DNA from: Bacteroidia bacterium
GTDB taxonomy: Bacteria; Bacteroidota; Bacteroidia; Cytophagales; Cyclobacteriaceae
NCBI GenBank assembly: GCA_031382175.1
Contig: JANMYO010000048.1
Location: forward strand, 31,927 to 95,926
Direction: 5' to 3'
DNA length: 64,000 nt
Shown here one piece after another: positions 1,731 through 54,745 of this stretch. The notes beneath the pieces are model-generated. The model saw nothing but the letters and a program-made list of their open reading frames with translations. It was not told where the DNA came from and did not search any database. The translations under genes and the position numbers were made by a program. The first letter of the stretch is position 1. Each line of letters opens with the position of its first letter.

Positions 1731-1935
1731 AAATTAAATTGTTTAATTGGTCCACCCTGTTTGTTCAGGCACAGGTTGGATAAGCCTTCGCTGCAGCGTA
1801 AGCCAAACATAAAAGGAGTGGCGATAAAAAAGGAAGACGCGCTTCCGCAAGTGGTCATCAACGTTCCCTTATTCCGCTACGACCGAAATCGTTCAAAGTT
1901 GAAATTTTCAACACTTCATTCCGCATTCATTTCTT

Positions 1936-1983
1936 AATCTTTCAATTTTCAAATCTTCAAATTTTCAAATCTTCTAATCCATC
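1936..1983. repeat. Six phase-locked 8-nt units containing a solo copy of the four-helix-bundle cassette terminal repeat
   Basis: Units are aatctttc aattttca aatcttca aattttca aatcttct aatccatc. The 15-mer tcaaattttcaaatc at 1957-1971 is identical to 53057-53071 and to the reverse complement of 52681-52695. Confidence 0.85.
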
Positions 1984-41738: not shown

Positions 41739-42092
41739 ATGGCATTTAAGTTTGAGAATTTGAAAGTATGGCAAAGTGCGGTGGAGTTATCCGGGCAGAT
41801 TTCTGAATTGACTAAGAAATTTCCTAAGGAGGAATTATTTATTTTAACATCACAACTCAAAAGGGCAACAGATTCAATCGCCTTGAATATTGCGGAAGGC
41901 TCTACGGGGCAGACCAATCCGGAGTTTAAGAAATTTTTAGGTTATGCCCTTCGATCAGCAATTGAAGTGGTGAGTTGTTTTTATCTAGCAAGGCGAAGAA
42001 ACTTGGTTAACGATCAGGAATTTGATCACTTCTATAACTATTTAACAACGCTTGTTAAAAGTATTCAGTCACTGCGTAATTCAATTCGCTAA
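41739..42092 (+). CDS. Four-helix-bundle protein (23S rRNA intervening-sequence protein / Avd family)
   Basis: The 117-aa protein has [13 protein letters not shown] and [16 protein letters not shown], hallmarks of the TIGR02436-type family. Its stop overlaps the next start (TAATG). Confidence 0.85.
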
Positions 42093-44791
42093 TGTACCAT
42101 CGACCATCAACCATCGACCATGGACCTTTAAAATTAAGCGGACTTGAATCCGTTGTGCTTACGCGCGAATCAAACTTTGTAAATATTGGCGAGCGAACCA
42201 ATGTAACAGGCTCTGCCCGGTTCTTAAAACTGATCAAGGAAGATAAGTTCGATGAGGCATTGGAGGTAGCACTCGATCAAGTCAGGGGAGGTGCACAGGT
42301 TATTGATGTCAACATGGACGAAGGGATGCTTGATTCTAAAGCGGCCATGGTGAAATACCTGAATCTTATGGCATCCGAACCAGAGATTTCAAGAATTCCC
42401 GTGATGATTGATTCTTCAAAGTGGGAAGTAATTGAGGAAGGCTTGAAGTGTCTGCAAGGAAAAGGCATCGTTAACTCCATCAGCATGAAAGGTGGAGTAG
42501 AGGAATTTAAACGTCAGGCTAAATTGGTGAAGCGCTATGGGGCAGCCACGGTAGTGATGGCCTTTGATGAAGATGGTCAGGCTGATACTTACCAGCGAAG
42601 AATTGATATCTGCAAAAGGGCGTATAATATATTGGTTAACGAAGTTCATTTTGCCCCACAGGACATAATTTTCGATCCAAATATTTTTCCCGTGGCCACA
42701 GGAATCGATGAACATAGAAATTATGCCTTGGATTTTTTTAAGGCGGCTAAGTGGATTCGGGAAAACCTTCCTCATGCGCACGTAAGTGGAGGCGTTAGTA
42801 ACGTCTCATTCAGCTTTAGGGGGAATCAGAAAGTACGCGAAGCGATGCATTCGGTTTTTCTCTATCATGCTATCCAGAACGGTATGGACATGGGCATTGT
42901 AAACCCTACGATGTTGGAGGTATACGATGAGATTCCTAAAGATCTTCTTGAACGAGTCGAAGATGTTTTGTTAAACAGGAGGGAAGATGCCACGGAAAGG
43001 CTTCTGGAATTTGCCGAGACCGTAAAGGGTTCAGCAAAGAAGAAAGAGGTTGATGATGAATGGAGAAACGGGTCGGTGGAGGATAGAATAACCCATGCCT
43101 TGGTAAAAGGTATCATTGATTTTGTCGATGCCGATACAGAAGAAGCTCGTTTAAAGTATGGCAAGCCGTTGAACGTCATTGAAGGTCCATTGATGGCCGG
43201 GATGAACGTGGTCGGAGATTTATTTGGAGCGGGTAAAATGTTTTTGCCACAAGTGGTGAAGAGTGCTCGCGTTATGAAAAAATCAGTTGCTTATCTCACG
43301 CCTTTTTTGGAGGAAGAAAAAAGGCAAACAGGGAACACGGGCCAGGTGGCTCCTAAGATTTTATTAGCGACCGTAAAGGGAGATGTGCATGACATTGGAA
43401 AGAATATAGTAGGCGTTGTGTTGGCCTGCAACAACTACGATGTGATTGACTTGGGTGTTATGGTTCCAGCTGAGAAAATCCTGGAAGCGGCCAGACGTGA
43501 AAAAGTAGATGTGATTGGTTTAAGTGGATTGATTACTCCTTCCCTGGATGAGATGGTGCATTTTGCCAAAGAGATGGAGCGGGAGAAAATGACGTTACCG
43601 CTGTTGATAGGAGGGGCCACCACTTCACGGATACATACGGCTGTTAAGATCGATCCTGTTTATTCGGGTCCAGTCGTCCATGTCTTGGATGCATCACGTT
43701 CTGTTCCGGTAGCCAGCGAATTGATTAATCCCAAGACCCGAGGCGACTTCCAAACAAAGATGAAGTTGGAGTATACCAATATGAGGAAGGACCATGAGAA
43801 CAGGCAGCAGTTGAAAAATTATATCCCTTTAGTCGAGGCTCGGAAGAATAAAGTAAAAATCGATTGGGATAAATTTGAACCGCACAGACCTACCTTTCTG
43901 GGTAAGAAGATTTTGCTTGACTTCCCTCTTGCAGAGATCAGTAAATTCATCGATTGGACTCCGTTTTTCCAAACGTGGATGTTGGCCGGTCGTTATCCGG
44001 CTATTCTTGAAGACGCTGTCGTAGGTGTTGAGGCAAAAAAACTTTTTGCTGATGCACAGGTTATGCTTAAGAAGATTATCAGTGAAAACAGGTTGCATGC
44101 GAATGGTGTATTTGCCTTTTATCGGGCCAACACCAATGATAAAGATGACGTTATTCTTTATCAAAATGGAAAGGAATTTAGAAAACTTCATTTCTTACGT
44201 CAGCAAAATAAGAAGGCTCAAAATCTTCCAAACTTCTGCCTGTCAGATTTCATTGCGCCAACCTCAAGCGGTAAACAAGATTACATTGGCATGTTTGCCG
44301 TAACAGCAGGAGTGGGGATTGAGAAAATTTTAGAGGAGTTTAAGGCTCAGCATGATGACTATTCGGATATCATGGTAAAGGCCTTGGCAGATCGCCTGGC
44401 CGAAGCCTTTGCGGAATGCTTGCATGCAAAAGTGAGAAGAGAATACTGGGGATATGCTTCCCATGAGGCCTTAAGTAATGAGCAAATGATTCACGAGGAG
44501 TATGATGGTATCCGGCCAGCACCCGGTTACCCGGCTTGCCCTGATCACACAGAGAAGCAAACTATATTTGAATTGTTGGATGCTGAAAAAGAGGCAGGGA
44601 TCATGTTAACAGAATCTTTTGCCATGTATCCGGCCTCATCGGTTAGCGGATATTACTTTTCTAACTCAGCGTCAAAGTATTTTGGATTAGGCAACATTGA
44701 TAAAGATCAAGTCATTGAATATGCAACTCGAAAGGAAAAACCGGTAGCGGAAATGGAAAAATGGCTTTCGCCAAATTTATCCTACAATTGA
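42092..44791 (+). CDS. metH: Methionine synthase MetH, pterin-binding + B12-cap + B12-binding + AdoMet-activation modules
   Basis: LKLSGLE.....[13 protein letters not shown] marks the start of the pterin domain. [11 protein letters not shown] is the DxHxxG B12 ligand loop, and the C-terminal reactivation domain is present. Confidence 0.93.
42097..42124 (+). repeat. Four phase-locked 7-nt units at the 5-prime end of the metH ORF
   Basis: ccatcga ccatcaa ccatcga ccatgga encodes the non-conserved HRPSTIDHG linker that precedes the canonical LKLSGLE. Confidence 0.7.
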
Positions 44792-44831
44792 TAGATTCGT
44801 TGATGAGATGATTTGAAGATTCGTAGATGAA
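44792..44831 (+). repeat. Five phase-locked 8-nt units (GAT every 8 nt) in the metH-metF spacer
   Basis: Units are tagattcg ttgatgag atgatttg aagattcg tagatgaa. The 13-mer tgatttgaagatt (44809-44821) recurs at 52664-52676. Confidence 0.75.
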
Positions 44832-44900
44832 ATACATATTACCCGATTTGAATTAAGTAATCACCGAATTGATGCATTAACAAATTACCGAATTATTACT

Positions 44901-45857
44901 ATGAAAGTAACAGAACACATAAAGAACGCCAACGGCAAAACGCTTTTCAGCATCGAAATTCTTCCTCCCTTAAAAGGAGAGAATATCCGTACACTGTTTG
45001 ATAATATGGACCCATTGATGGAGTTTAAACCTCCGTTTATTGACGTTACCTATCATCGGGAGGAGTATGTTTATAAGAAGAAGGATAATGGACTTTTAGA
45101 AAAGCGATCCACCCGTAAGCGCCCAGGGACGGTAGGAATATGTGCAGCCATTCAAAATCATTACAAGGTAGATACCGTGCCTCATATTATCTGCGGGGGT
45201 TTTAGTAAGGAAGAAACAGAGAATGCCCTTATTGACTTACAATTTTTGGGAATAGATAATGTGCTGGCATTGCAGGGAGATGCAATTAAAAGTGAAGCGC
45301 GCTTTGTTGCTGAACCGGATGGGCATAAATATGCTTCTGAATTACTAGGCCAAATCGTGGCCATGAATAACGGAAAGTTCATTGAAGAAGAATTGCAACA
45401 TCCCAATCCTACCAATTTTTGTGTGGGCGTGGCAGCTTATCCTGAAAAGCACTTTTCTTCCCCTAACCTAAAGACGGATATCAAATACCTGAAGCATAAA
45501 GTAGATTTAGGAGCAGAGTATATCGTAACACAAATGTTTTTTAATAACGAGAGGTATTTCGAATTTGTGAAACTCTGCAGAGAGAATGATATTCATATCC
45601 CTATCATTCCGGGAATCAAGCCAATCACTGCAAAAGTTCAGACGACAGTGCTTCCTACCATATTTCACATTGATCTGCCTGATGAGTTGGCGGATGAAAT
45701 AGAGAAGTGTAAAGACAATACCGCTGTAAAGCAGGTGGGAATTGAATGGACCATAAGACAATCAAAAGAGTTGATGAAGTTTGGTGTGCCCACGTTGCAT
45801 TATTACTCGATGGGTAAATCTGATCCAATTTATAAGATTGCGAGAGAGTTATTTTAG
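44901..45857 (+). CDS. metF: Methylenetetrahydrofolate reductase
   Basis: FSIEILPP, DVTYH and TQMFFN motifs are present, and the gene lies in the met operon. Confidence 0.9.
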   Translation: MKVTEHIKNANGKTLFSIEILPPLKGENIRTLFDNMDPLMEFKPPFIDVTYHREEYVYKKKDNGLLEKRSTRKRPGTVGICAAIQNHYKVDTVPHIICGGFSKEETENALIDLQFLGIDNVLALQGDAIKSEARFVAEPDGHKYASELLGQIVAMNNGKFIEEELQHPNPTNFCVGVAAYPEKHFSSPNLKTDIKYLKHKVDLGAEYIVTQMFFNNERYFEFVKLCRENDIHIPIIPGIKPITAKVQTTVLPTIFHIDLPDELADEIEKCKDNTAVKQVGIEWTIRQSKELMKFGVPTLHYYSMGKSDPIYKIARELF

Positions 45858-45936
45858 AAAGCACTGTCCGGTCAATTGATGTTGTTCCATAATGAAGTCA
45901 AGAAATGCATATTGTCATTTTTTTTATATTTGAGTA

Positions 45937-46185
45937 ATGAATGTCACCAAAAGGAGACAAAATGAAAAGGAATTTGAGAATTGGACTAAAACATCTGGTG
46001 GAGGCAGGCAGTATTGGTTTGATGTGATGGGACGAAACGGAGGTAAAGCACGATATGTCAAAGAGGTTGATCTCAATGAAACAACCATAGCATTTTGGCA
46101 GGAGGTTTTTGATATACACGGAACAATGATTGAGCTACATGAAAAGTTTCCAATTGACAAGGGACATATAAAAATTGTACTATGA
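45937..46185 (+). CDS. Hypothetical small protein (82 aa), first gene of an overlapping pair
   Basis: ATG start. Its stop overlaps the next start (ATGA). No family assigned. Confidence 0.5.
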   Translation: MNVTKRRQNEKEFENWTKTSGGGRQYWFDVMGRNGGKARYVKEVDLNETTIAFWQEVFDIHGTMIELHEKFPIDKGHIKIVL

Positions 46186-46442
46186 TAACAAAGCAATCTA
46201 TCGCCATGCGGCTTTTAGCTTACATGAAGCATGAGATCAACCTGCCACAGTTAGTGACTTGGTCGGAAAACGCTATTATGCAGGGAGGCTTTGAGCCCGG
46301 AAGCGAAGGAGAGATTAAAATTGTATTAGGTAAGCTAGGCCTTGCTGATGTAAACAACTTTGGCCTGCTTTGGGAAGATTGTGAGCAGTTGATGGCACAA
46401 TTAGGATATAAAGTGAAAATCGAGGCGGCCTTAGTGGCTTAA
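46182..46442 (+). CDS. Hypothetical small protein (86 aa), second gene of the overlapping pair
   Basis: It overlaps the previous ORF by 4 nt. No family assigned. Confidence 0.5.
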   Translation: MITKQSIAMRLLAYMKHEINLPQLVTWSENAIMQGGFEPGSEGEIKIVLGKLGLADVNNFGLLWEDCEQLMAQLGYKVKIEAALVA

Positions 46443-46477
46443 TAGATTATAATTTGACTTGCCAACGTTAGCATTTC

Positions 46478-46534
46478 TACTCCATGGGTAAATCTGATCC
46501 GATTTACTGAATAGCCGGAGAGTTATTTTGAGCA
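46478..46534 (+). repeat. Second copy of the metF 3-prime end (compare 45804-45864)
   Basis: tactccatgggtaaatctgatccgatttactgaatagccggagagttattttgagca matches tactcgatgggtaaatctgatccaatttataagattgcgagagagttattttagaaagca. The copy has an in-frame TGA. Confidence 0.85.
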
Positions 46535-46683
46535 TTTGGAATTTTTAGTTCTTCTAAAACCTGACGTATCATGGTAGTCTTGCCCACCTGGCGCGGGCCA
46601 TAGATTGCCTGAATGAGCTTTCTGGGCTCCATCAGTCTTTTCATAACTAATTGATAGTGAGTTCTTTTTATTGAATTAATCAT
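46504..46683 (-). pseudogene. N-terminal fragment of an AAA-type ATPase (DUF4143-associated family), truncated
   Basis: MINSIKRTHYQLVMKRLMEPRKLIQAIYGPRQVGKTTMIRQVLEEL includes a Walker A motif. The reading frame then runs into the metF-end repeat and stops. Full-length relatives are several-fold longer. Confidence 0.65.
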
Positions 46684-46741
46684 TTTACTCAACATATTGA
46701 GTAAAATGTAATGAGCGCCTATTTTTTTGACCCTAAGAATG

Positions 46742-46778
46742 CCTGATTTACTGAATAGCCAAGGAATTGTTTTAAGCA
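46742..46778 (+). repeat. Third, shorter copy of the metF 3-prime end
   Basis: cctgatttactgaatagccaaggaattgttttaagca shares gatttactgaatagcc with copy 2, including the same in-frame TGA. Confidence 0.7.
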
Positions 46779-46781
46779 AAC

Positions 46782-46814
46782 AAAAAAAAGGGGCGAGAGC
46801 CCCTTTAATTTTCT
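46782..46814. terminator. Bidirectional rho-independent terminator
   Basis: The stem aaaggggc / gccccttt has an 8-bp pairing and a gaga loop. It is preceded by an A8 run (a U-run for the minus-strand gene) and followed by a T-rich tract. Confidence 0.8.
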
Positions 46815-46829
46815 ATTAGTTAAGATCAG

Positions 46830-48491
46830 TTAAGGTATGGGTAGACCTGTTCCTTTGTATTGACTAATATCCGTCAACGGTACTGTTGCTCCAAATTTTT
46901 CGTTGATAGCGGCAATAAACACTCGTGATAAGAATGCGTAGCCGCGACTATTTGGATGGACACCATCTTCAGAATAGATTCCTGTAGGAGGGGCAAGACT
47001 AGGTGTTATAGTTACGCCATTATAGACACCCGCTTTATTGGTAACAAGAGTTGCTAAAGCAGCGCTAACATCAGCTAGAGCAAGTCTTGTGGAATTTGCC
47101 GTAACATAATCCTTTACAGTTGTGTTAAAAGCCTCCCTTGCAGCCATAATAGCGGTAATCTCGCTAGGGATAAGCACACCGGCATCGCCCAAAGGAACAG
47201 TGACTCCGTTTACTTTTGTCGGATCGCCACCAACAAGCGTTCCTAAGACTGATCCGGTACCTAATGGTATAATATCAGTAGCTGTTGTTTGCCGAACCTT
47301 CTGATAAGGTGCAAGAGCTGTGCGTTGGCCTGCCGTAATAGCCCCAACGCCTAATAATCCATCAAAATAGGGTCCTAGGTCAGTCAGGGTTTCATCAGTG
47401 ATAAGAATCTTATTGGTACAACTTGCAGTAAATGTGACTTTGCGAGTACCAATTTCTGCTTTAAGTGCATCATTAATTCCAAATGCCACTGCGTTAGCAA
47501 TTAATCCATCAAGCGCTGCATTATAACCGGCAAAGCCTGTACTGACTGCAGATGCAGTTGCAGCATCCAAGGGAATTGGATTATACTTTACAGAGGTAAA
47601 ATGGGGCATTACAAAAATATCCGGAAAATTACCTACAACTCCCTTAAGATTTGGATTGGAAGCAAGCAATCCGGTAGTTGGGCTGAGTGCGGCATTGTAA
47701 TACGCACTAAAAAGTCCGGAAGAAGTTAAGGGTGCTTTAGTTGGATCTGCGCCAAAAGCCGCGTACAAAAAGAAATCATCAAGGCCCAACCAAAACATGA
47801 AGAATGTTCCTTGGGCAGCTGCTACATCTCCAATGATTGTTGTTGTACCACCGGGTGGAGGAGCTAATCTTGCATAGAACGGACTAAATCCAACAGCGGG
47901 ATTCGGTACAGCCCAGTTACCGGTGGCGGTAGTCAATGCCTGACCAAGCGTGATTGCAGGAACTCCGAAATTGTTAAGAGTTGTTTTTCCTCCAGTATAA
48001 ATGAATGCCGGGTTCAATGATGGGTTTGGAACTGCCTCAAGATTACCTACATCATATTTTTGGGCCGTTGGCTTGGGAGAGATTTTTCCCGTAGCGCAAT
48101 CAGGTGTAGTACTATTTTGAAGTAGCAATCTTCCAATAACTTTACTATCTGTGCCTGGATTCGGTGTAACGAATAGATTGTAACCTAAGGTAGCCTTAAT
48201 ATCAGGTTGAATAAAAGCACCTCCACCTACACCAGATATAGCAAATTGTTTAGCCATAATAGCGGGTAAAGAATTGGTCTGTCCTTCTGTAAACAAAGCT
48301 CCGCCTTGCATTCCGGCAACAAACGAATTACCGATGGCAATAAATTTTGTAAAATCAGCGGTACCCTTAGTCCCGGTAATAGGATCTGGTGTTACTGGAA
48401 CCTCTGGTTCAGGAACAATTGGTTCTTGCTTACACGACCCCACCAGGAGGACCGTGATCAGGAGAATATAGAGATATTTAGTGTTTTTCAT
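46830..48491 (-). CDS. SGNH/GDSL-hydrolase-like lipoprotein
   Basis: The ATG at 48491 gives the lipobox MKNTKYLYILLITVLLVGSC. The block I variant is FIAIGNSFVAGMQ and block V is DGVHPNSRGY. The gene lies immediately downstream of a TonB-dependent receptor. Confidence 0.55.
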   Translation of the reverse strand: MKNTKYLYILLITVLLVGSCKQEPIVPEPEVPVTPDPITGTKGTADFTKFIAIGNSFVAGMQGGALFTEGQTNSLPAIMAKQFAISGVGGGAFIQPDIKATLGYNLFVTPNPGTDSKVIGRLLLQNSTTPDCATGKISPKPTAQKYDVGNLEAVPNPSLNPAFIYTGGKTTLNNFGVPAITLGQALTTATGNWAVPNPAVGFSPFYARLAPPPGGTTTIIGDVAAAQGTFFMFWLGLDDFFLYAAFGADPTKAPLTSSGLFSAYYNAALSPTTGLLASNPNLKGVVGNFPDIFVMPHFTSVKYNPIPLDAATASAVSTGFAGYNAALDGLIANAVAFGINDALKAEIGTRKVTFTASCTNKILITDETLTDLGPYFDGLLGVGAITAGQRTALAPYQKVRQTTATDIIPLGTGSVLGTLVGGDPTKVNGVTVPLGDAGVLIPSEITAIMAAREAFNTTVKDYVTANSTRLALADVSAALATLVTNKAGVYNGVTITPSLAPPTGIYSEDGVHPNSRGYAFLSRVFIAAINEKFGATVPLTDISQYKGTGLPIP

Positions 48492-48515
48492 ATCTGTAGT
48501 TTTATGATTCACGGA

Positions 48516-51311
48516 TTATTTAAAGAATTCGTCAAAAGTGAGTGTGATATAGTATTGCTGGCCCACATAAGGTGCGCCAAGGTTAGTACGATAGTCACCA
48601 CCTCCGATATTAGTTGCTCCAATTTTTACCATGGATTTAATGGCAGACATTTTGTAGTTAAGCTGAGCGTCCACTACACCAAATTCAGGTACTTCCCAAA
48701 CCCCAAAGGAGGATTCCCACAGATACTTATACTGCCATCTGTAGTTAACATTGAAGCCAAGGTTCTTGGTTATTTTTCTGTTACTCAGGCCGACACTGAC
48801 TTTATTCTTAGGTGTATTAAACCCTGCCCTGAAATCTACAGATTCATTAGCATCAAACGTTGCCCAGCTCCAGTTCCCACTCACAACAAAGTTTTTAGGG
48901 AGACTATAGGAAGCTCCTAATCCAACACCCATTGATGTGACTTTCTGTGTAGAGTTTGTATAAGGAGAGAATAAGGTGCCAGCTTTAACGGCATTACCTT
49001 GGTGAGTGGTAGCGTTCTTGGAAACCACAGGCTCACCTCCGATAAAGTTCTTATAGCTGGTGTAATAGCCACTCAGATCAATGAGTAGCTTCTTATTAAT
49101 GATACCTTTGTAGCCAAGCTCATAGGATTGTAACTGCTCGGGTTGCACATAGTCAAAGTCTGAAGTTTGTAAAAGACTTGCATTTCCACCTGTTGGTGCA
49201 CCTGTGATAGGATCTAAGCTCCCACCCGAAGCACGATAGGCATCATAAGATACTTTACTATAAGCGCCACCATTGTGAATTCCATAGCGCTCAGCATTGG
49301 CCTTTGTACTTCCTACGAGCGTTCCACCAGAAGAGGGGAAATAAATAAACTGAGCCTGGGTATCTGGATTTCTAAAACCAGTTTGGAAAGAAGCCCTGAT
49401 GTTTTGATCACCTGAGAAACTATAAACTGCTGAAATTCTAGGTGTCACTTGACCATCAAAGTTTTCGTTCTTATCATAACGAAGTGAACCCGTTAGTTTT
49501 AGAGCGTCTGCAAATGTCTTGGCAATCTGAGCATATCCACCAAATTCGTCAATTTTTATTCGCTTAAAATTTACTCCATCATCGGGCGCCTCATTAAAGA
49601 TGGTGCCTGAAGAGTATAAATCGTACTGACGGTAATTACCACCAACTTGTACTTCCGCCCACTTAATTTGATCAAAGAACTTATAGTTGAACTCTACATG
49701 TCTTAATTTTGAATTGTCTTTAAATGAAGATCCTCCAGCTGCTCCGACAGGGGTTGTTTGAAAGAAATTATCCCTAACCGCCTTAGCTTTGTCAATAAAT
49801 TCCTGGGAGCCTGGTGCAGGCCGAGGCGCTAACGGATTATTGTCTGCTGCATTTCTTGCGGCAGCATGTGCTTGCGTTACATCACCTGCAGTTACCCCCG
49901 GCACATATCCCTGAAGGGCGAGCACGTAAGTCTGGGCGTAAAGAGGTGCCCATTGCGCTGCTGTTGGACTGATTGTCTCATTTAAGTAAATTCCCAATGC
50001 ACCTAAGTTGTAAGATTTACCCGCATCTGTTGCAGTCTGATAAGCTCTAATAAAGAAATTGTCACCCTTCAATTCAAGTTTATGGAATTGCTGAGAGAAG
50101 TCACGCAGCGCATACTTTTCAGTTCCCTGATACACAGAACTTCCACCGCCATATCTGTAGTTATAGATGGCTTCGATTTTATCATTAATTCTATAATGAA
50201 GAGCGGCATCTCCCTTTATACTTTTCGCATCGCGATCATCTGAGTAGGCCTTCAACAAGTCTTCTTCTTTATAGCCTGTTCTTCTAAGATCCAGCGTACC
50301 GAAGGTACCTCCGATAGGAACGGGTATTGGAAACTCATCACCGTAAGTATTAAGCCCATCGAAGTTTGCCTTACTACTTAAGTCGGTCTTCGATTCAGGA
50401 TTATTCCGATCGGTTTTATAATCATTACCCAGCCAATCCGTTGCGCTCATGTAGGAGAAATTCAATTTGAAAGCAAATTTATTGTTGAACGCCTTAGCAT
50501 AGCGTATGCTGTATTGAGACAATGCATTTGATCCTCCTGCATCGGAACTGGTTTGTCCTAATTTAACTTGTGCACTTAGCCCTTGATATTCAAAGGGATT
50601 TTTACTTCTCATCAGCATAATACCATTAAATGCATTGGGGCCGTACAGCGCAGAGGCAGCGCCAGGCACTAATTCAACACTTTCAGCATCTAGTTCTCCA
50701 ATACCAATTAGGTTACCAGTTGGAAAGTTAAGTAAGGGCGCCTGGGTGTCCATTCCGTCAACCAATTGTACAAAACGAACGTTGGCAATAGTGGCAAAGC
50801 CTCTCGTGTTAAGTGAGGTTAAGTTTAAACTGCCAGAGTTAGCCTGAACTCCTTTAATGTTTGCCATGGCATCATAAAAGTCAGGAGTTGCAGATTGGCG
50901 AATGGCCAAGACGTCCATTTTCTCAATCGTCACGGGCGATTTCAAAATACTTTCTTCCACACGTGAAGCAGAAACAACCACTTCTTGTCCTAGCAGCAAC
51001 TGCTCTTCCATCACAAGGTCAAGGCCAGTTGTGTTCGCATCTTTTATTTCAATCTCCTGAGTTTTGAACCCAATGAAAGAGAATGAAAGCGTAAAAGGTG
51101 GAGACTGACTTACTTTAAGATTAAATTGGCCGTTGGTGTCGGAGATAGTCCCCGCAACACGGCCTTTGACTATGATATTTACACCGGCAAGAGTTTCACT
51201 GGTGGTTCCGTCTTTAACCGTGCCGGATACGGTACTCTGCGCCAGGGCAGTTGCTCCACCTACCAACAACAGGATGACAGGTAAGAACGCTTTTAAGTAG
51301 AACTTCTTCAT
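48516..51311 (-). CDS. TonB-dependent outer-membrane receptor with carboxypeptidase-regulatory-like N-terminal domain
   Basis: The ATG at 51311 gives the signal peptide MKKFYLKAFLPVILLLVGGATALAQ. It is followed by TVSGTVKD....LAGVNIIVKG, a plug domain, and a long barrel ending in an aromatic residue. Confidence 0.85.
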   Translation of the reverse strand: MKKFYLKAFLPVILLLVGGATALAQSTVSGTVKDGTTSETLAGVNIIVKGRVAGTISDTNGQFNLKVSQSPPFTLSFSFIGFKTQEIEIKDANTTGLDLVMEEQLLLGQEVVVSASRVEESILKSPVTIEKMDVLAIRQSATPDFYDAMANIKGVQANSGSLNLTSLNTRGFATIANVRFVQLVDGMDTQAPLLNFPTGNLIGIGELDAESVELVPGAASALYGPNAFNGIMLMRSKNPFEYQGLSAQVKLGQTSSDAGGSNALSQYSIRYAKAFNNKFAFKLNFSYMSATDWLGNDYKTDRNNPESKTDLSSKANFDGLNTYGDEFPIPVPIGGTFGTLDLRRTGYKEEDLLKAYSDDRDAKSIKGDAALHYRINDKIEAIYNYRYGGGSSVYQGTEKYALRDFSQQFHKLELKGDNFFIRAYQTATDAGKSYNLGALGIYLNETISPTAAQWAPLYAQTYVLALQGYVPGVTAGDVTQAHAAARNAADNNPLAPRPAPGSQEFIDKAKAVRDNFFQTTPVGAAGGSSFKDNSKLRHVEFNYKFFDQIKWAEVQVGGNYRQYDLYSSGTIFNEAPDDGVNFKRIKIDEFGGYAQIAKTFADALKLTGSLRYDKNENFDGQVTPRISAVYSFSGDQNIRASFQTGFRNPDTQAQFIYFPSSGGTLVGSTKANAERYGIHNGGAYSKVSYDAYRASGGSLDPITGAPTGGNASLLQTSDFDYVQPEQLQSYELGYKGIINKKLLIDLSGYYTSYKNFIGGEPVVSKNATTHQGNAVKAGTLFSPYTNSTQKVTSMGVGLGASYSLPKNFVVSGNWSWATFDANESVDFRAGFNTPKNKVSVGLSNRKITKNLGFNVNYRWQYKYLWESSFGVWEVPEFGVVDAQLNYKMSAIKSMVKIGATNIGGGDYRTNLGAPYVGQQYYITLTFDEFFK

Positions 51312-51434
51312 AAGCGGAAAGGTTAAGTTTTTTTTAAATCTACAAGATTTTTGCAAAAAACAAACGATTGTGAGAGCCCTTTTTTGCTATCGATTGAAAA
51401 AAAACAGAGCAAAAAAGAAGTGAAATTCTTGCTT

Positions 51435-51764
51435 TTAGGATTTGGATGCACTCACCATTTTCACCAGTTTTTCGCAAAGGGCATTCATTTCATTGGCCAT
51501 GACTTCATCGCCTGTAGAAGTAAGAGAACTTTGGGCTAACCCTCCGAGGCAATCAATATAAAAACGCCTCATATCTTCTACGGGCATGTCTTTGGTCCAG
51601 AGGTCTATACGTAGTGTATTTTTTTGTTCGTGGTCCCACAACGAGATGCTTATAGATTTTGATTCTGAAATTCCATCTGGTTTATCTGTTGCCTCCCAGG
51701 TGATTTTCTCAGGCACGTTATTGTCGTCTAGTTCAATGGAGAATTGGATGGAAGATTTTTTCAT
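51435..51764 (-). CDS. gldC: Gliding motility protein GldC
   Basis: The 109-aa protein has VPEKITW, SLWDHEQKNTLRIDLWTKDMPVEDM and related motifs. It closely resembles Flavobacterium johnsoniae GldC as I recall it. Confidence 0.8.
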   Translation of the reverse strand: MKKSSIQFSIELDDNNVPEKITWEATDKPDGISESKSISISLWDHEQKNTLRIDLWTKDMPVEDMRRFYIDCLGGLAQSSLTSTGDEVMANEMNALCEKLVKMVSASKS

Positions 51765-51791
51765 TTACTTTTTTCAATTATTCTTTTCCTG

Positions 51792-51974
51792 TCAAAGGAT
51801 CTTTTTCACTTTTACTACCTGACCGGAGAATGAATAGATTACATCAGATCTTTTCATTCGATCGCGAACTTTACGTGCAAAATCTAACCGCTCAATAGGG
51901 GAGAATCTTAGAAATGCTTCGTCCTTTTGCTTTTGTTCTTCCTCAAAAGTAGTTTTAACAACTTTGTTAATCAT
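51792..51974 (-). CDS. Hypothetical small protein (60 aa)
   Basis: ATG start. The first seven residues, MINKVVK, are identical to the ScoA N-terminus. The ORF lies between scoB and gldC. Confidence 0.35.
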   Translation of the reverse strand: MINKVVKTTFEEEQKQKDEAFLRFSPIERLDFARKVRDRMKRSDVIYSFSGQVVKVKKIL

Positions 51975-52001
51975 TTGCCAAAGTTAGAGAAGGTAGATGG
52001 C

Positions 52002-52658
52002 TTATAAAAGCATCTCAGGCACATCATTTTCAGCAATTAACTTTCCGGCAGTCGCATTTTTTATTTGCTCAACTGAAATACCCGGTGCTCTTTCAAGGAG
52101 TTTGAATCCTCCTGTCGGTAGCACATCCAACACCGCCATATCGGAAACAATCCTTCTTACACACCTTAATCCGGTGATGGGTAAGGTGCATTCTTTAAGA
52201 AGCTTAGAAGCACCTTCCTTACTGCAATGCTGCATGGCAACGATAATGTGCTTAGCCGAAGCTACTAAGTCCATAGCGCCTCCCATTCCTTTCACCATTT
52301 TACCAGGCACTTTCCAATTGGCAATGTCACCGTTCTCAGACACTTCCATCGCGCCAAGAATCGTTAAGTCAACTTTGCCGCTGCGGATCATTCCAAAACT
52401 TTCAGCTGAACTAAATAAGGCGGAGCCGGGCATCATGGTGATAGTTTGCTTTCCGGCATTGATTAAATCGGGATCAACGTTTTCTTCCTTGGGAAAAGGA
52501 CCGATTCCCAGCAATCCATTTTCAGATTGCAATACGACATCTATATTTTTAGGAATGTAATTGGCTACCAGCGTAGGGATTCCAATGCCAAGATTGATGT
52601 ACATCCCATCTTTTACTTCCTGCGCTATTCGCTTTGCGATTCCTATTTTATCTAACAT
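52002..52658 (-). CDS. scoB: 3-oxoacid CoA-transferase subunit B
   Basis: It has the SENG catalytic-Glu motif (QSENGLLG) and GMGGAMDL. Confidence 0.9.
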   Translation of the reverse strand: MLDKIGIAKRIAQEVKDGMYINLGIGIPTLVANYIPKNIDVVLQSENGLLGIGPFPKEENVDPDLINAGKQTITMMPGSALFSSAESFGMIRSGKVDLTILGAMEVSENGDIANWKVPGKMVKGMGGAMDLVASAKHIIVAMQHCSKEGASKLLKECTLPITGLRCVRRIVSDMAVLDVLPTGGFKLLERAPGISVEQIKNATAGKLIAENDVPEMLL

Positions 52659-52677
52659 AAATTGATTTGAAGATTAG

Positions 52678-52695
52678 CTGATTTGAAAATTTGAG
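52678..52695. repeat. Left arm of the perfect 18-bp inverted repeat bracketing the four-helix-bundle gene
   Basis: gctgatttgaaaatttga is the exact reverse complement of 53057-53074. Confidence 0.95.
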
Positions 52696-52697
52696 GA

Positions 52698-53045
52698 TTA
52701 AACTTTAGAGGAGCTAATTATCTTTGAAATTATGCGAATGATACTCCGTAATTCTTCTAACATTAATTCCGGATTAGCGTAATGCTCTGATTCTTTACAA
52801 AGCAAAAGCCAATATTCCGTTTCGTCCGCCTCTTTCGCGGCTATTTTGAATTTATGAATGAAATCTGCTTTGCTCTCAGCATTCTGCGCTTCTCTTACAT
52901 TGGCACCAATTGAAGTTCCTGATTTCAACAATTGTCTGGCGAGTACATATTTTTTGCTGCTTTCAAGCTTCTCGCAAAAATCGAGAATAGCAAGAGAGAA
53001 TTTAAAAGTAAGGTCAACAATTAGATTGTCCTTGTCATTCCTCAT
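52698..53045 (-). CDS. Four-helix-bundle protein (23S rRNA intervening-sequence protein / Avd family)
   Basis: LLKSGTSIGANVREAQ and KEADETEYWL motifs are present. I use the ATG at 53045; the track ORF begins at a TTG at 53060 that lies inside the inverted repeat. Confidence 0.85.
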   Translation of the reverse strand: MRNDKDNLIVDLTFKFSLAILDFCEKLESSKKYVLARQLLKSGTSIGANVREAQNAESKADFIHKFKIAAKEADETEYWLLLCKESEHYANPELMLEELRSIIRIISKIISSSKV

Positions 53046-53056
53046 CACTGATATTT

Positions 53057-53074
53057 TCAAATTTTCAAATCAGC
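53057..53074. repeat. Right arm of the perfect 18-bp inverted repeat
   Basis: tcaaattttcaaatcagc is embedded in an 8-nt-periodic array (atattttc aaattttc aaatcagc atattttc aaattttt) spanning 53051-53090. Confidence 0.95.
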
Positions 53075-53080
53075 ATATTT

Positions 53081-53779
53081 TCAAATTTTTGAAATAGTTC
53101 TTTGTTCAATCCTCTTTTCATAATTTTCGCCTTGAAAAATCCGATGAACATAGATTCCGGGTGTGTGAATCATGTTGGGATCAAGCTGCCCTACCTGAAC
53201 AAGTTCTTCTACCTCGGCAATGGTAATCGTTCCGGCTGAGGCCATCATCGGGTTAAAGTTACGCGCGGTGCCTTTGTAAATTAAGTTCCCTGTCGTATCT
53301 CCCTTCCATGCCTTAACGATTGAAAAATCAGCCCTCAACCACTTCTCCATCAGGTAAATTTTTCCTTCAAAAGTTCTTGTCTCTTTCCCTTCAGCGACCT
53401 CTGTACCGACACCGGCAGGAGTGAAGAAGGCCGGTATCCCTGCACCTCCGGCTCGCACTCGTTCTGCCAGCGTGCCTTGCGGAATCAATTCCACTTCCAA
53501 TTCACCAGAGAGTAATTGTCTTTCAAATTCGGCATTTTCTCCTACGTAAGAAGAGATCATCTTTTTTACCTGACGTGTTTTAAGCAAAAGACCAATACCG
53601 AAGTCATCTACACCTGCGTTATTTGAAATGCAGGTTAAACCTTTGATGCCCCTTCGCAATAGTGCCGAAATACAATTCTCAGGAATACCACATAGCCCAA
53701 ATCCGCCAAGCATCATCGTGACGTTATCTGGAATGTCTTTGACCGCTTCATCAGCATCTTTCACTACTTTATTAATCAT
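53081..53779 (-). CDS. scoA: 3-oxoacid CoA-transferase subunit A
   Basis: [22 protein letters not shown] and [11 protein letters not shown] motifs are present. Confidence 0.9.
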
Positions 53780-53809
53780 GACAGGTATTGATAAATTTTT
53801 AAAGTTAGA

Positions 53810-54745
53810 TTACAACTTCCCTTTCAACGCGATTAAAGCTAACTCCTTATCTTTATGAAGTTGAACTTTTAACTCTTCGAGGTCTTTAAATTTCGAATCT
53901 GTGCGGAGTAATTTTTCAAAAGATACCTTCAGTTCTTCTCCATAGATTTCTTTTTCAAAGTTAAAAATATTCACTTCAATGGATCTTTTGCTTCCATCGA
54001 CAGTTGGTCGATTGCCAATGTAGAGCATTCCGCCATACTGTGCAGTAGCATGGGTAACGGTTACCGCATAAATGCCTTCGGCAGGCACCAGTTTATAGTG
54101 GGAATCGATGTCAATATTTGCTGTTGGAAATCCTAAGACACGACCGAGTTTGTCTCCCTTAACAACACGACCAACGATAGAATAGGTTCGACCAAGAAAG
54201 TGTGCAGCTGTTTCAACGTCACCTTCTTCAAGAGCTTTTCTAATCTTTGATGAACTAACTCCAATATGATCAATATCCTGTCGGGGAATTTCTTCTACTT
54301 CAAATCCAAGAGTAGGGCCGTTGGCTTTAAGTTCCTCAAAACTTCCCTCACGATTTTTACCAAATCGATGATCGTAGCCAATTACCAGTTTGCGTGTGCC
54401 AATCCTGTTCACTAATATTTGGGTGATAAACTCCGCAGAATGAAGTTGCGAAAATTCTTTTGTGAAAGGTATTCGAATAAGGTGTTGAATTCCTTGTTCC
54501 TTCAACAGCTCCGCTTTCTCTTCAAACGTGTTGAGCAGTTTAAGAGCCCCATCATTGGGTTTCAGAACAAGCCTGGGGTGAGGCCAAAATGAAATAACCA
54601 CCGTTTCTCCAGAATTTTTAGAAGCGATTTCTTTTAGTCGTGAAAGAATTCGTTGATGTCCCACATGAACGCCATCGAATGTACCACTGGTAACCACTGC
54701 AAATTGTAGTTTAGTGAAATCATCAATGTTGTGATAAATTTTCAT
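53810..54745 (-). CDS. ribF: Bifunctional riboflavin kinase / FAD synthetase
   Basis: GTFDGVHVGHQ marks the N-terminal FMN adenylyltransferase, and the C-terminal kinase region has GFPTAN. Confidence 0.92.
   Translation of the reverse strand: MKIYHNIDDFTKLQFAVVTSGTFDGVHVGHQRILSRLKEIASKNSGETVVISFWPHPRLVLKPNDGALKLLNTFEEKAELLKEQGIQHLIRIPFTKEFSQLHSAEFITQILVNRIGTRKLVIGYDHRFGKNREGSFEELKANGPTLGFEVEEIPRQDIDHIGVSSSKIRKALEEGDVETAAHFLGRTYSIVGRVVKGDKLGRVLGFPTANIDIDSHYKLVPAEGIYAVTVTHATAQYGGMLYIGNRPTVDGSKRSIEVNIFNFEKEIYGEELKVSFEKLLRTDSKFKDLEELKVQLHKDKELALIALKGKL

Follow-up and report, generated by a model that had tools for sequence, protein, structure and literature searches.

Intervening sequences (IVSs) of 23S ribosomal RNA (rRNA) that carry an open reading frame (ORF) are the described elements closest to the one reported here. 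In Coxiella burnetii, the 23S IVS is 428-444 nucleotides (nt) long, has a 28-base-pair (bp) terminal stem, carries the S23p ORF with tandem GACAGAT heptamers upstream of it, and is excised by RNase III (PMC4990558). The ORF is reported to be decaying and is probably untranslated, S23p is a homopentamer (PMC4990558), and Ralph and McClelland, as far as they are cited in the same article, proposed that the IVS ORF serves mobility. For more than 30 years, it has been an open question where rRNA IVSs and the S23p/four-helix-bundle proteins that some of them encode come from and what they do. Here we analyzed a 64,000-nt stretch of a Bacteroidia bacterium contig (JANMYO010000048.1, Cyclobacteriaceae; the window) in which a cassette of ~420 nt with a four-helix-bundle gene lies between scoA and scoB, the genes for the two subunits of 3-oxoacid CoA-transferase. 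Very probably, the cassette is inserted at the scoA/scoB junction as one of a dispersed family of four-helix-bundle cassettes whose arms are inverted tandem repeats, and has the same architecture as the ORF-bearing rRNA IVSs.

The likeness to the IVSs of Leptospira and Coxiella burnetii covers both the gene and its borders. The ORFs belong to the same family, PF05635, and the Coxiella IVS and the cassette fall into one size class (428-444 nt versus ~420 nt). Terminal inverted repeats form a stem of ~18-30 bp that loops out the ORF, in silico in the case of the cassette, and the elements occur sporadically among relatives. In addition, both in Coxiella and here the ORF is accompanied by short tandem repeats with a period not divisible by three, heptamers in the former and octamers in the latter. 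The IVS sits in an rRNA helix, whereas the cassette occupies the intercistronic junction of an operon, between two protein-coding genes, and so lacks the rRNA location of an IVS. Excision by RNase III is described for the Coxiella IVS and is a putative step for the cassette. Finally, the Coxiella ORF is reported to be decaying, whereas the ORF here is under purifying selection, with a ratio of nonsynonymous to synonymous differences (pN/pS) of 0.22 and saturated synonymous sites (pS ~0.85).

The arms, in turn, resemble a group of repeats whose meaning in cyanobacteria and other phyla is likewise open. Tandem heptamers are abundant and unexplained, adjoin start codons, contain stops in all three frames and occur as convergent pairs, according to two articles (PMC4679880, PMC4692102). 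Among them, the TAACTGA repeats of Beggiatoaceae, Cyanobacteria and Bacteroidetes lie upstream of start codons and carry three-frame stops (MacGregor 2015, PMC4679880). Like the cyanobacterial short tandemly repeated repetitive (STRR) sequences, TAACTGA and the Xanthomonas GGGAATC repeats, the arms are built of 7-8-nt units, are intergenic, occur in the same phyla, lie upstream of starts or overlap upstream stops, contain three-frame stops and frequently form convergent pairs. Unlike the documented heptamers, they come in inverted pairs that enclose either members of one particular gene family or a variable loop. S23/four-helix-bundle genes and gene-cassette arms are unmentioned in the searched passages of PMC4679880 and PMC4692102, and the full-text literature searched, which covered few subscription journals, contained no link of heptamer repeats to PF05635 genes and no description of IVS-like cassettes outside rRNA. 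On the protein side, Avd of the diversity-generating retroelements (DGRs) has a homologous four-helix-bundle fold, and pentameric assemblies are reported for relatives (PMC10053308; PDB 2RLD). A DGR has a reverse transcriptase and template/variable repeats, whereas the neighborhood here has none of these, and no reverse transcriptase is among the neighbor genes of the locus. To our knowledge, Avd genes have not been described as bracketed by inverted tandem-repeat arms.

The product of the small gene, 115 amino acids (aa) long, matches PF05635 with 79.4 bits (cut-off 33.8, E = 2.7e-22) and TIGR02436 with 92.9 bits (cut-off 24), the only families matched above cut-off. Its residues 2-93 match PDB 2RLD, a Bacteroides protein solved as a four-helix bundle with five chains (E = 1.9e-23). 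An initial annotation of the window, made from the sequence, had placed a four-helix-bundle gene of this length between scoA and scoB in the same orientation, and all three genes do lie on the minus strand. They belong to the gene run BacA-TruB-RibF-ScoA-X-ScoB-(60 aa)-GldC-like, where X is the small protein; a TonB-dependent receptor is also among the neighbors. The cassette is 99.1-100% identical in six independent assemblies of other samples and is therefore no assembly artefact.

Two arrays of one octamer border the cassette, with (R)ATTTGAA as the unit 5' of the ORF and the complement 3' of it (Table 1). They contain the perfect 18-mer GCTGATTTGAAAATTTGA at 52677-52694 and its exact reverse complement at 53057-53074. 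The initial annotation was right about this exact pair and about its right arm, and had set the left arm one position off, at 52678-52695. The pair extends to 30 nt with 90% complementarity (52665-52694 and 53057-53086). In the 5' arm, the first octamer takes in the last two codons of scoA and its TGA stop (53081-53083). In the 3' arm, the complementary part reaches to 52665, 6 nt upstream of the scoB ATG. No other perfect inverted pair of at least 18 nt at a spacing of 200-600 nt is present in the 64-kb window. Only 0.29 matches to the 18-mer with up to three mismatches are expected in the window, the inverted repeat scores 24, which 0 of 1000 shuffles reach (mean 8.2, maximum 15), and the arm duplex energy is -31.5 kcal/mol against -14.5 +/- 3.4 kcal/mol (z = -5.1). 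Therefore, chance is a poor explanation of the inverted repeat. When the sense RNA is folded, as the initial annotation had proposed, both the minimum-free-energy and the centroid structure hold a long-range helix of 18+7 bp that loops out the ORF.

Table 1. Positions of the cassette, its host genes and other features in the window
Feature	Position	Strand	Details
scoA, 3-oxoacid CoA-transferase subunit A, upstream host gene	53081-53779	-	PF01144; TIGR02429, 274.9 bits
5' arm, four tandem octamers (gene strand)	53055-53086	-	ATTTGAAA / ATATGCTG / ATTTGAAA / ATTTGAAA
Four-helix-bundle ('23S rRNA intervening sequence protein' family) gene, subtype T1, 115 aa	52698-53045	-	PF05635, TIGR02436; ATG at 53045
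3' arm, inverted octamer array (gene strand)	52662-52694	-	TCAAATTTTCAAATCAGCTAATCTTCAAATCAA
scoB, 3-oxoacid CoA-transferase subunit B, downstream host gene	52002-52658	-	PF01144; TIGR02428, 314.9 bits
ORF of 60 aa between scoB and the GldC-like gene	51792-51974	-	
metF	44901-45857	+	
Gene-less degenerate element, metH-metF junction	44795-44893	+	ATTYG octamer units (44795-44823) facing CRAAT units (44865-44893)
metH	42092-44791	+	
Solo arm, two-unit tandem, in a 700-nt divergent intergenic region	~1941-1975	.	TTCAAATTTTCAAATC x2; holds 15-nt core 1957-1971
Small separate palindrome	1899-1913		gttgaaattttcaac

Comparison of related genomes shows that the element is an insert and not a fixed part of the operon. 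A ScoB scan with one genome per species gave 80 Cytophagales loci of 86-97% ScoB identity. The junction is empty at 20 of them, with a spacer of 1-12 nt (e.g. taaTatg), and 22 have spacers of 26-173 nt with short remnants or gene-less hairpins. Three loci keep only a fragment of the small gene, 34 have a full four-helix-bundle gene of at least three subtypes, and one, with scoA and scoB ~2.8 kb apart (L062), was left unclassed. In other words, the alignment of relatives called for by the initial annotation does reveal empty sites, next to relatives with the gene, its remnants or a different subtype at the same point. These junctions, empty in 20 species, and the anatomy of an ORF-bearing rRNA IVS support its proposal of an IVS-like cassette in an mRNA operon.

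At all occupied loci, the small gene is co-oriented with the operon. ScoA ends in ...EQRTITK at empty sites and has an arm-encoded C-terminus in the window (...RTISKI), with occupied sites reading ...SKI, ...SNLKI or ...SNSVIR, in each case before the stop. The arm thus takes the place of the last codon and stop of scoA, and no duplicated host bases, that is, no target-site duplication, were found between empty and occupied junctions. Among the deletion remnants, L038 retains the first codons of the small gene and L056 retains both arms. The cassettes at scoA-scoB can be ordered into a decay series, with premature stops (L045, L070), fragments (L018, L036, L046) and remnants (L038, L056, L026, L024), in which the arms outlast the gene. 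Gene-less hairpins in the scoA-scoB spacers are of the GACTAAG heptamer type (spacers of 82-109 nt; L040, L043, L059, L064, L073) or of the CGCAAAG type (173 nt; L049, L050). Since several unit types are found at one junction, the site attracts several repeat-hairpin families. Gene-less hairpins of other tandem units are also seen at this junction in L082 and L053.

Subtypes were defined ad hoc by N-terminal motif and length. An intact ORF start is present at 35 loci, namely 32 of the scan, L003, L007 and the window. T1 (MRNDKDNLIV..., 115 aa) includes the window and has 16 loci, T2 (..KKYNPDLKENLIV..., 123-137 aa) also has 16, and T3 (MRNDKPNLIV..., 117 aa) has three. The arm unit is (R)ATTTGAA in T1 and T3 (ATTTGAAA for T1) and TAATTCGN in T2. 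The cultivable species Chryseotalea sanaruensis (L060; BHXQ01) has its T2 cassette at the same junction, and the complete Cytophagales genomes CP126125.1 and OZ257123.1 are carriers as well. The window and its closest relative, L015, differ in subtype: with flanks of 86-88% nt identity, their small proteins (T1 and T2) share 62% aa identity, and similarity drops sharply from ~15 nt before the scoA stop through the scoB ATG. Unlike subtypes are likewise found in the close host pairs L057/L085, L035/L055 and L007/L078. Within a subtype, protein distance follows host-gene distance (Spearman 0.65-0.68), but across subtypes it does not. On a neighbor-joining tree of scoA+scoB, the subtypes, empty junctions and remnants are interleaved; the tree is unbootstrapped and star-like, and of the incongruence only that of the pairwise distances is robust. 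The cassette is therefore long-lived in vertical descent, yet has been repeatedly lost, degraded and replaced.

A plain accessory gene of the sco operon that is inherited vertically, with AT-rich flanks that are complementary by chance, would be in keeping with the purifying selection on the protein and with the truB-ribF-scoA-gene-scoB synteny kept in distant Cytophagales. Such a gene is contradicted by the 20 empty junctions, the 25 remnants or fragments, the interleaving of three subtypes on the host tree and an inverted repeat far above chance. As described below, the same architecture also appears in unrelated operons and phyla. We therefore regard this explanation as almost certainly wrong.

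Related four-helix-bundle genes lie between the same arms at other junctions; this answers the call of the initial annotation for a repeat search beyond the locus. A census of the exact T1 18-mer ATTTGAAAATTTGAAAAT, taken across metagenomes and not within a single genome, gave at least 120 stretches. Among the matches listed, one is a scoA-scoB locus and six adjoin a four-helix-bundle gene, as in L215, where a T1-armed gene lies between arsC-like and ACR3-like genes; the remaining ones are mostly gene-less hairpins or solo arms in intergenic DNA. Ten of the 106 classifiable matches among those listed fall within ORFs. The other 96 comprise 78 between co-directional genes (39 '++' and 39 '--'), 11 between divergent and seven between convergent genes. 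At other junctions, too, T1 arms lie against the stop codon on their upstream side and the start codon on their downstream side. The gene-less T1 hairpins have loops that are mutually unrelated, and identity among four-helix-bundle copies in other contexts is only ~65-70%, which gives no hint of recent transposition. The initial annotation had named two sequence observations that would speak against it, a repeat unique to the locus and relatives that all carry the gene without inverted repeats, and neither is what we find.

The architecture extends to other phyla. Inverted tandem-heptamer arms flank 24 of 32 further family genes, 11 of 12 on plasmids and 13 of 20 on viral contigs, with members in Cyanobacteria, Spirochaetes, Chloroflexota, Firmicutes and phage-like contigs. 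The plasmid set consists of Bernardetia, Chondrinema, Nostoc, Dolichospermum, Anabaena, Euhalothece, Pseudanabaena, Planktothrix, Gloeocapsa, Chlorohelix, Treponema and a Monoglobus pseudogene. Ten of these 12 genes are co-directional with a neighbor (all except Anabaena and Euhalothece), and they are often inside operons such as hsdS-X-hsdR, drmD-X-MmeI and RND adaptor-X-RND permease. The arms of Nostoc and Dolichospermum are TAATTCG x4, in perfect pairs of 35 bp and 33 bp, those of Chondrinema and Euhalothece consist of CAGT-type units, and further plasmid units include GTAAAAA, GGATGAA, GATTTTA and GATTTAC. At several plasmid loci, the stop codon of the upstream gene is supplied by the 5' arm. 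On viral contigs the arms have a period of seven, and the family genes lacking them are mostly GC-rich. The cassette thus has the look of an element that is widespread, the classic rRNA IVSs being one case of it.

Some further observations were made in these sets. The Treponema saccharophilum plasmid pTS1 (L338) has ~40 tandem GAAAGNG heptamers upstream of its four-helix-bundle gene (~1700-2010), a short CTCTCCG array directly after them, and a CTCTCCR array downstream of the gene (~2370-2470). Plasmid cassettes lie in multi-gene operons (L342, L345, L343, L340, L344, L346, L336), mostly of defense: hsdS-X-hsdR, drmD-X-MmeI, helicase-X-methylase, beside cas1/cas2, and DUF1156-X-HEPN. The L336 cassette lies between the RND adaptor and the RND permease. 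Reported 'associations' of the family with defense systems may in part reflect cassette insertion. In phage-like IMG/VR contigs of sample 3300045988, hairpins with AATGTGCR x4 and YGCACATT x4 arms share a conserved ~40-nt loop (L113, 10170-10350; L118, 1010-1115; L123, 5470-5600 and 5965-6075; L154, 105-215). Two of them flank a small ORF in L123, and no four-helix-bundle gene is near these hairpins. The search of viral contigs with a degenerate four-unit pattern that brought these phage-like hairpins to light returned mostly unrelated tandem repeats and zero four-helix-bundle genes. A specificity between protein and unit was considered and dropped, T2 proteins being no closer than T1 proteins to the cyanobacterial proteins with TAATTCG arms.

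At the scoA-scoB junction, the position of the arms is regular. Flanking inverted repeats are significant in 26 of the 28 occupied loci with two usable spacers, and direct-repeat controls are low. The 5' arm starts -18 to +16 nt relative to the end of the scoA stop codon, and the 3' arm usually ends 0-14 nt upstream of the scoB ATG. Long spacers have their extra sequence within the loop, between the ATG of the small gene and the 5' arm, which remains at the scoA stop, 84-127 nt from that ATG. Each unit contains TGA or TAA, and its length is not divisible by three; as a result, 30 of 35 5' arms have stops in all three frames, against 37% of shuffled arms, as do 28 of 35 3' arms when their opposite strand is read. 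Within the regular ATTTGAAA arrays of many T1 arms, often in one arm only, an irregular octamer (ATGTGCTA / ATATGCTG) recurs, for example in L090, L228, L239, L248, L261 and L319 and at 53071-53078 of the window; it would produce an internal loop in the predicted helix.

We lean slightly towards an IVS-type cassette that would be co-transcribed with scoA and scoB, with the arms pairing in the transcript into a helix of ~30 bp and the ORF looped out, so that the pairing would make the insertion tolerable. RNase III may cut the arm helix as in the rRNA IVSs, a possibility that we raise because of the analogy with them. Alternatively, the pairing might preserve the link between the host genes. 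scoA and scoB normally abut and are presumably translationally coupled; ribosomes finishing scoA within the 5' arm would unmask the 3' arm beside the scoB AUG, and initiation at scoB would stay dependent on scoA. In addition, a repeat period that is not a multiple of three would guarantee that the upstream ORF terminates in any frame.

Several comparisons of the arms weigh against this reading. At non-Watson-Crick arm positions, there is no excess of G·U (37 G·U, 45 A·C, 106 other), nor is there a bias in the gene-less hairpins (16 G·U versus 12 A·C). The arms of a T1 locus pair with each other no better (20.4) than with those of other T1 loci (21.6, p = 0.96), which shows no locus-specific covariation, and for T2 the scores are 19.6 and 18.5 (p = 0.08). 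Across subtypes, pairing scores are about half as high (10.6-12.8); for gene-less hairpins the difference between own and cross pairing is marginal (p = 0.044). Without an own-arm advantage or a G·U excess, an evolutionary signature specific to an RNA stem is therefore absent. Moreover, the arms are near-identical between species with saturated synonymous sites, which suggests that the constraint acts on the sequence itself, for instance as a binding site or through homogenisation, and not on pairing alone. The arms are complementary because both are arrays of one consensus unit. Thus, the stem proposed by the initial annotation is present in both folds, but the perfect 18 bp arise incidentally from an inverted pair of arrays that share one consensus octamer. 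The conservation of the arm sequence, together with the excess of gene-less hairpins, keeps two alternatives in play, a DNA-level or REPIN-like system and recognition of the units by the encoded protein.

RAYTs (REP-associated tyrosine transposases) are Y1 (HUH) transposases, and their genes are the partners of the repetitive extragenic palindromic (REP) elements and of the hairpins that these form (REPINs). As in the REP/REPIN-RAYT system (on REPINs, PMC3116915), a single gene lies here between inverted copies of a repeat that the metagenome data show to be dispersed as gene-less hairpins as well. In contrast to that system, the small protein does not belong to the Y1 (HUH) transposases, the arms repeat a short unit in tandem instead of being single palindromes, and evidence of recent amplification is absent. 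MITEs (miniature inverted-repeat transposable elements) and small transposons share with the cassette terminal inverted repeats, intergenic position and presence/absence polymorphism, but here no target-site duplication and, in cis, no transposase was found, and the gene-less copies have unrelated loops.

The arms could accordingly be terminal repeats or hairpin ends for a recombinase or transposase encoded elsewhere, or for the small protein itself, with the gene-less hairpins as non-autonomous copies, comparable to REPINs and RAYT, and RNA pairing as incidental. The polymorphism and subtype replacement at one site with boundaries sharp at the arms, the T1 18-mer in at least 120 metagenome stretches, mostly gene-less among the matches listed, arm conservation beyond the needs of pairing without G·U bias, and the mobility proposal of Ralph and McClelland, as it is cited in PMC4990558, would all fit such a DNA-level element. 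We nevertheless consider it unlikely. None of the loci showed a transposase or integrase in cis or a target-site duplication, and the small mobile cassette with terminal repeats suggested by the initial annotation is thus unproven. The 115-aa helical bundle has no known catalytic motif. Within subtypes, protein divergence follows the host, and movement is therefore rare; the divergence of the copies elsewhere likewise gives no sign of recent transposition, and the transcript level offers the better explanation of the strong co-orientation with host genes.

The near-identity of the arms despite saturated synonymous sites would also be expected if they were binding-site arrays for a protein that recognizes the repeats, with complementarity as a side-effect. 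The candidate is the encoded protein, which would regulate itself or scoB; a pentamer is suggested by the five chains of PDB 2RLD and by the homopentameric S23p (PMC4990558). Both arms are built of the subtype-specific unit (ATTTGAAA in T1, TAATTCGN in T2), and similar subfamilies share units across phyla, the CAGT type in Chondrinema and Euhalothece and TAATTCG in Nostoc and Dolichospermum. Co-inheritance as one cassette explains this correlation without binding, however, and T1 and T2 proteins are equally distant from the cyanobacterial proteins with TAATTCG-type arms. Most hairpins, moreover, have no such gene nearby, and we judge binding-site arrays to be rather improbable.

The placement of the arms raises a further alternative, in which each acts independently as an AU-rich leader for translation initiation, the 5' arm for the small gene and the 3' arm for scoB, with no long-range pairing, as proposed for TAACTGA heptamers in organisms that rarely use Shine-Dalgarno sequences. 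Each arm does end a few to ~30 nt from a start codon, and TAACTGA repeats share this placement and the three-frame stops (MacGregor 2015, PMC4679880). The proposal leaves unexplained why the upstream array is always followed downstream by its reverse complement, the direct-repeat control being low. Where the 5' spacer is long, the arm is still found at the scoA stop, 84-127 nt from the ATG that it would serve, and paired arms would inhibit and not enhance initiation. Initiation leaders are thus very unlikely.

The locus is a tractable test bed, with a two-subunit enzyme whose stoichiometry depends on the junction. RNase III processing driven by the arms, translational coupling across the 420-nt insert and recognition of the arms by the encoded protein can all be tested here. 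The empty, remnant and alternative-subtype alleles suggest that the IVS architecture, a family ORF between inverted tandem-repeat arms at operon junctions, is general, and the rRNA cases may be a special instance of it. For annotation, this suggests that thousands of 'four helix bundle protein' genes in metabolic and defense operons may be cassette cargo and not components of these systems. A bolder proposal, which we put forward as a long shot, is that PF05635 proteins and the tandem 7-8-nt repeats of Cyanobacteria, Bacteroidota, Xanthomonas and Beggiatoaceae form one system. The complete form would be the cassettes with gene and arms, and the far commoner hairpins without a gene at operon junctions would derive from them or be their targets. 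The units would be recognized by the pentameric protein and in this way maintained, spread or regulated, and 23S IVSs would be cassettes that landed in rRNA.

Other scans of the locus were negative. PADLOC (defense) and PHROGs (phage) libraries gave zero matches, and an Rfam scan of 44000-54500 found zero families. Scans of the cassette for sigma-70-type and Bacteroidota-type (TTTG-N17-23-TAnnTTTG) promoters and for intrinsic terminators returned nothing. The idea that the arms are promoters was dropped after the empty promoter scans; T2 arms also lack TTTG. No further four-helix-bundle gene is present in the window or in any 6.6-kb flank of the related loci.

The window contains two other repeat features of this kind (Table 1). 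The gene-less element between metH and metF is degenerate and weakly complementary (p = 0.044; fold z = -0.4). The 15-nt core of the repeat does recur as noted in the initial annotation, but what had been taken for a solo copy proves to be part of a two-unit tandem, for which no partner array was found. A small separate palindrome lies near this solo arm. Next to scoB, the 60-aa ORF has no Pfam match; it is found in the close assemblies L011-L014 and is missing at the same position in L007. Its first seven residues, MINKVVK, are those of ScoA.

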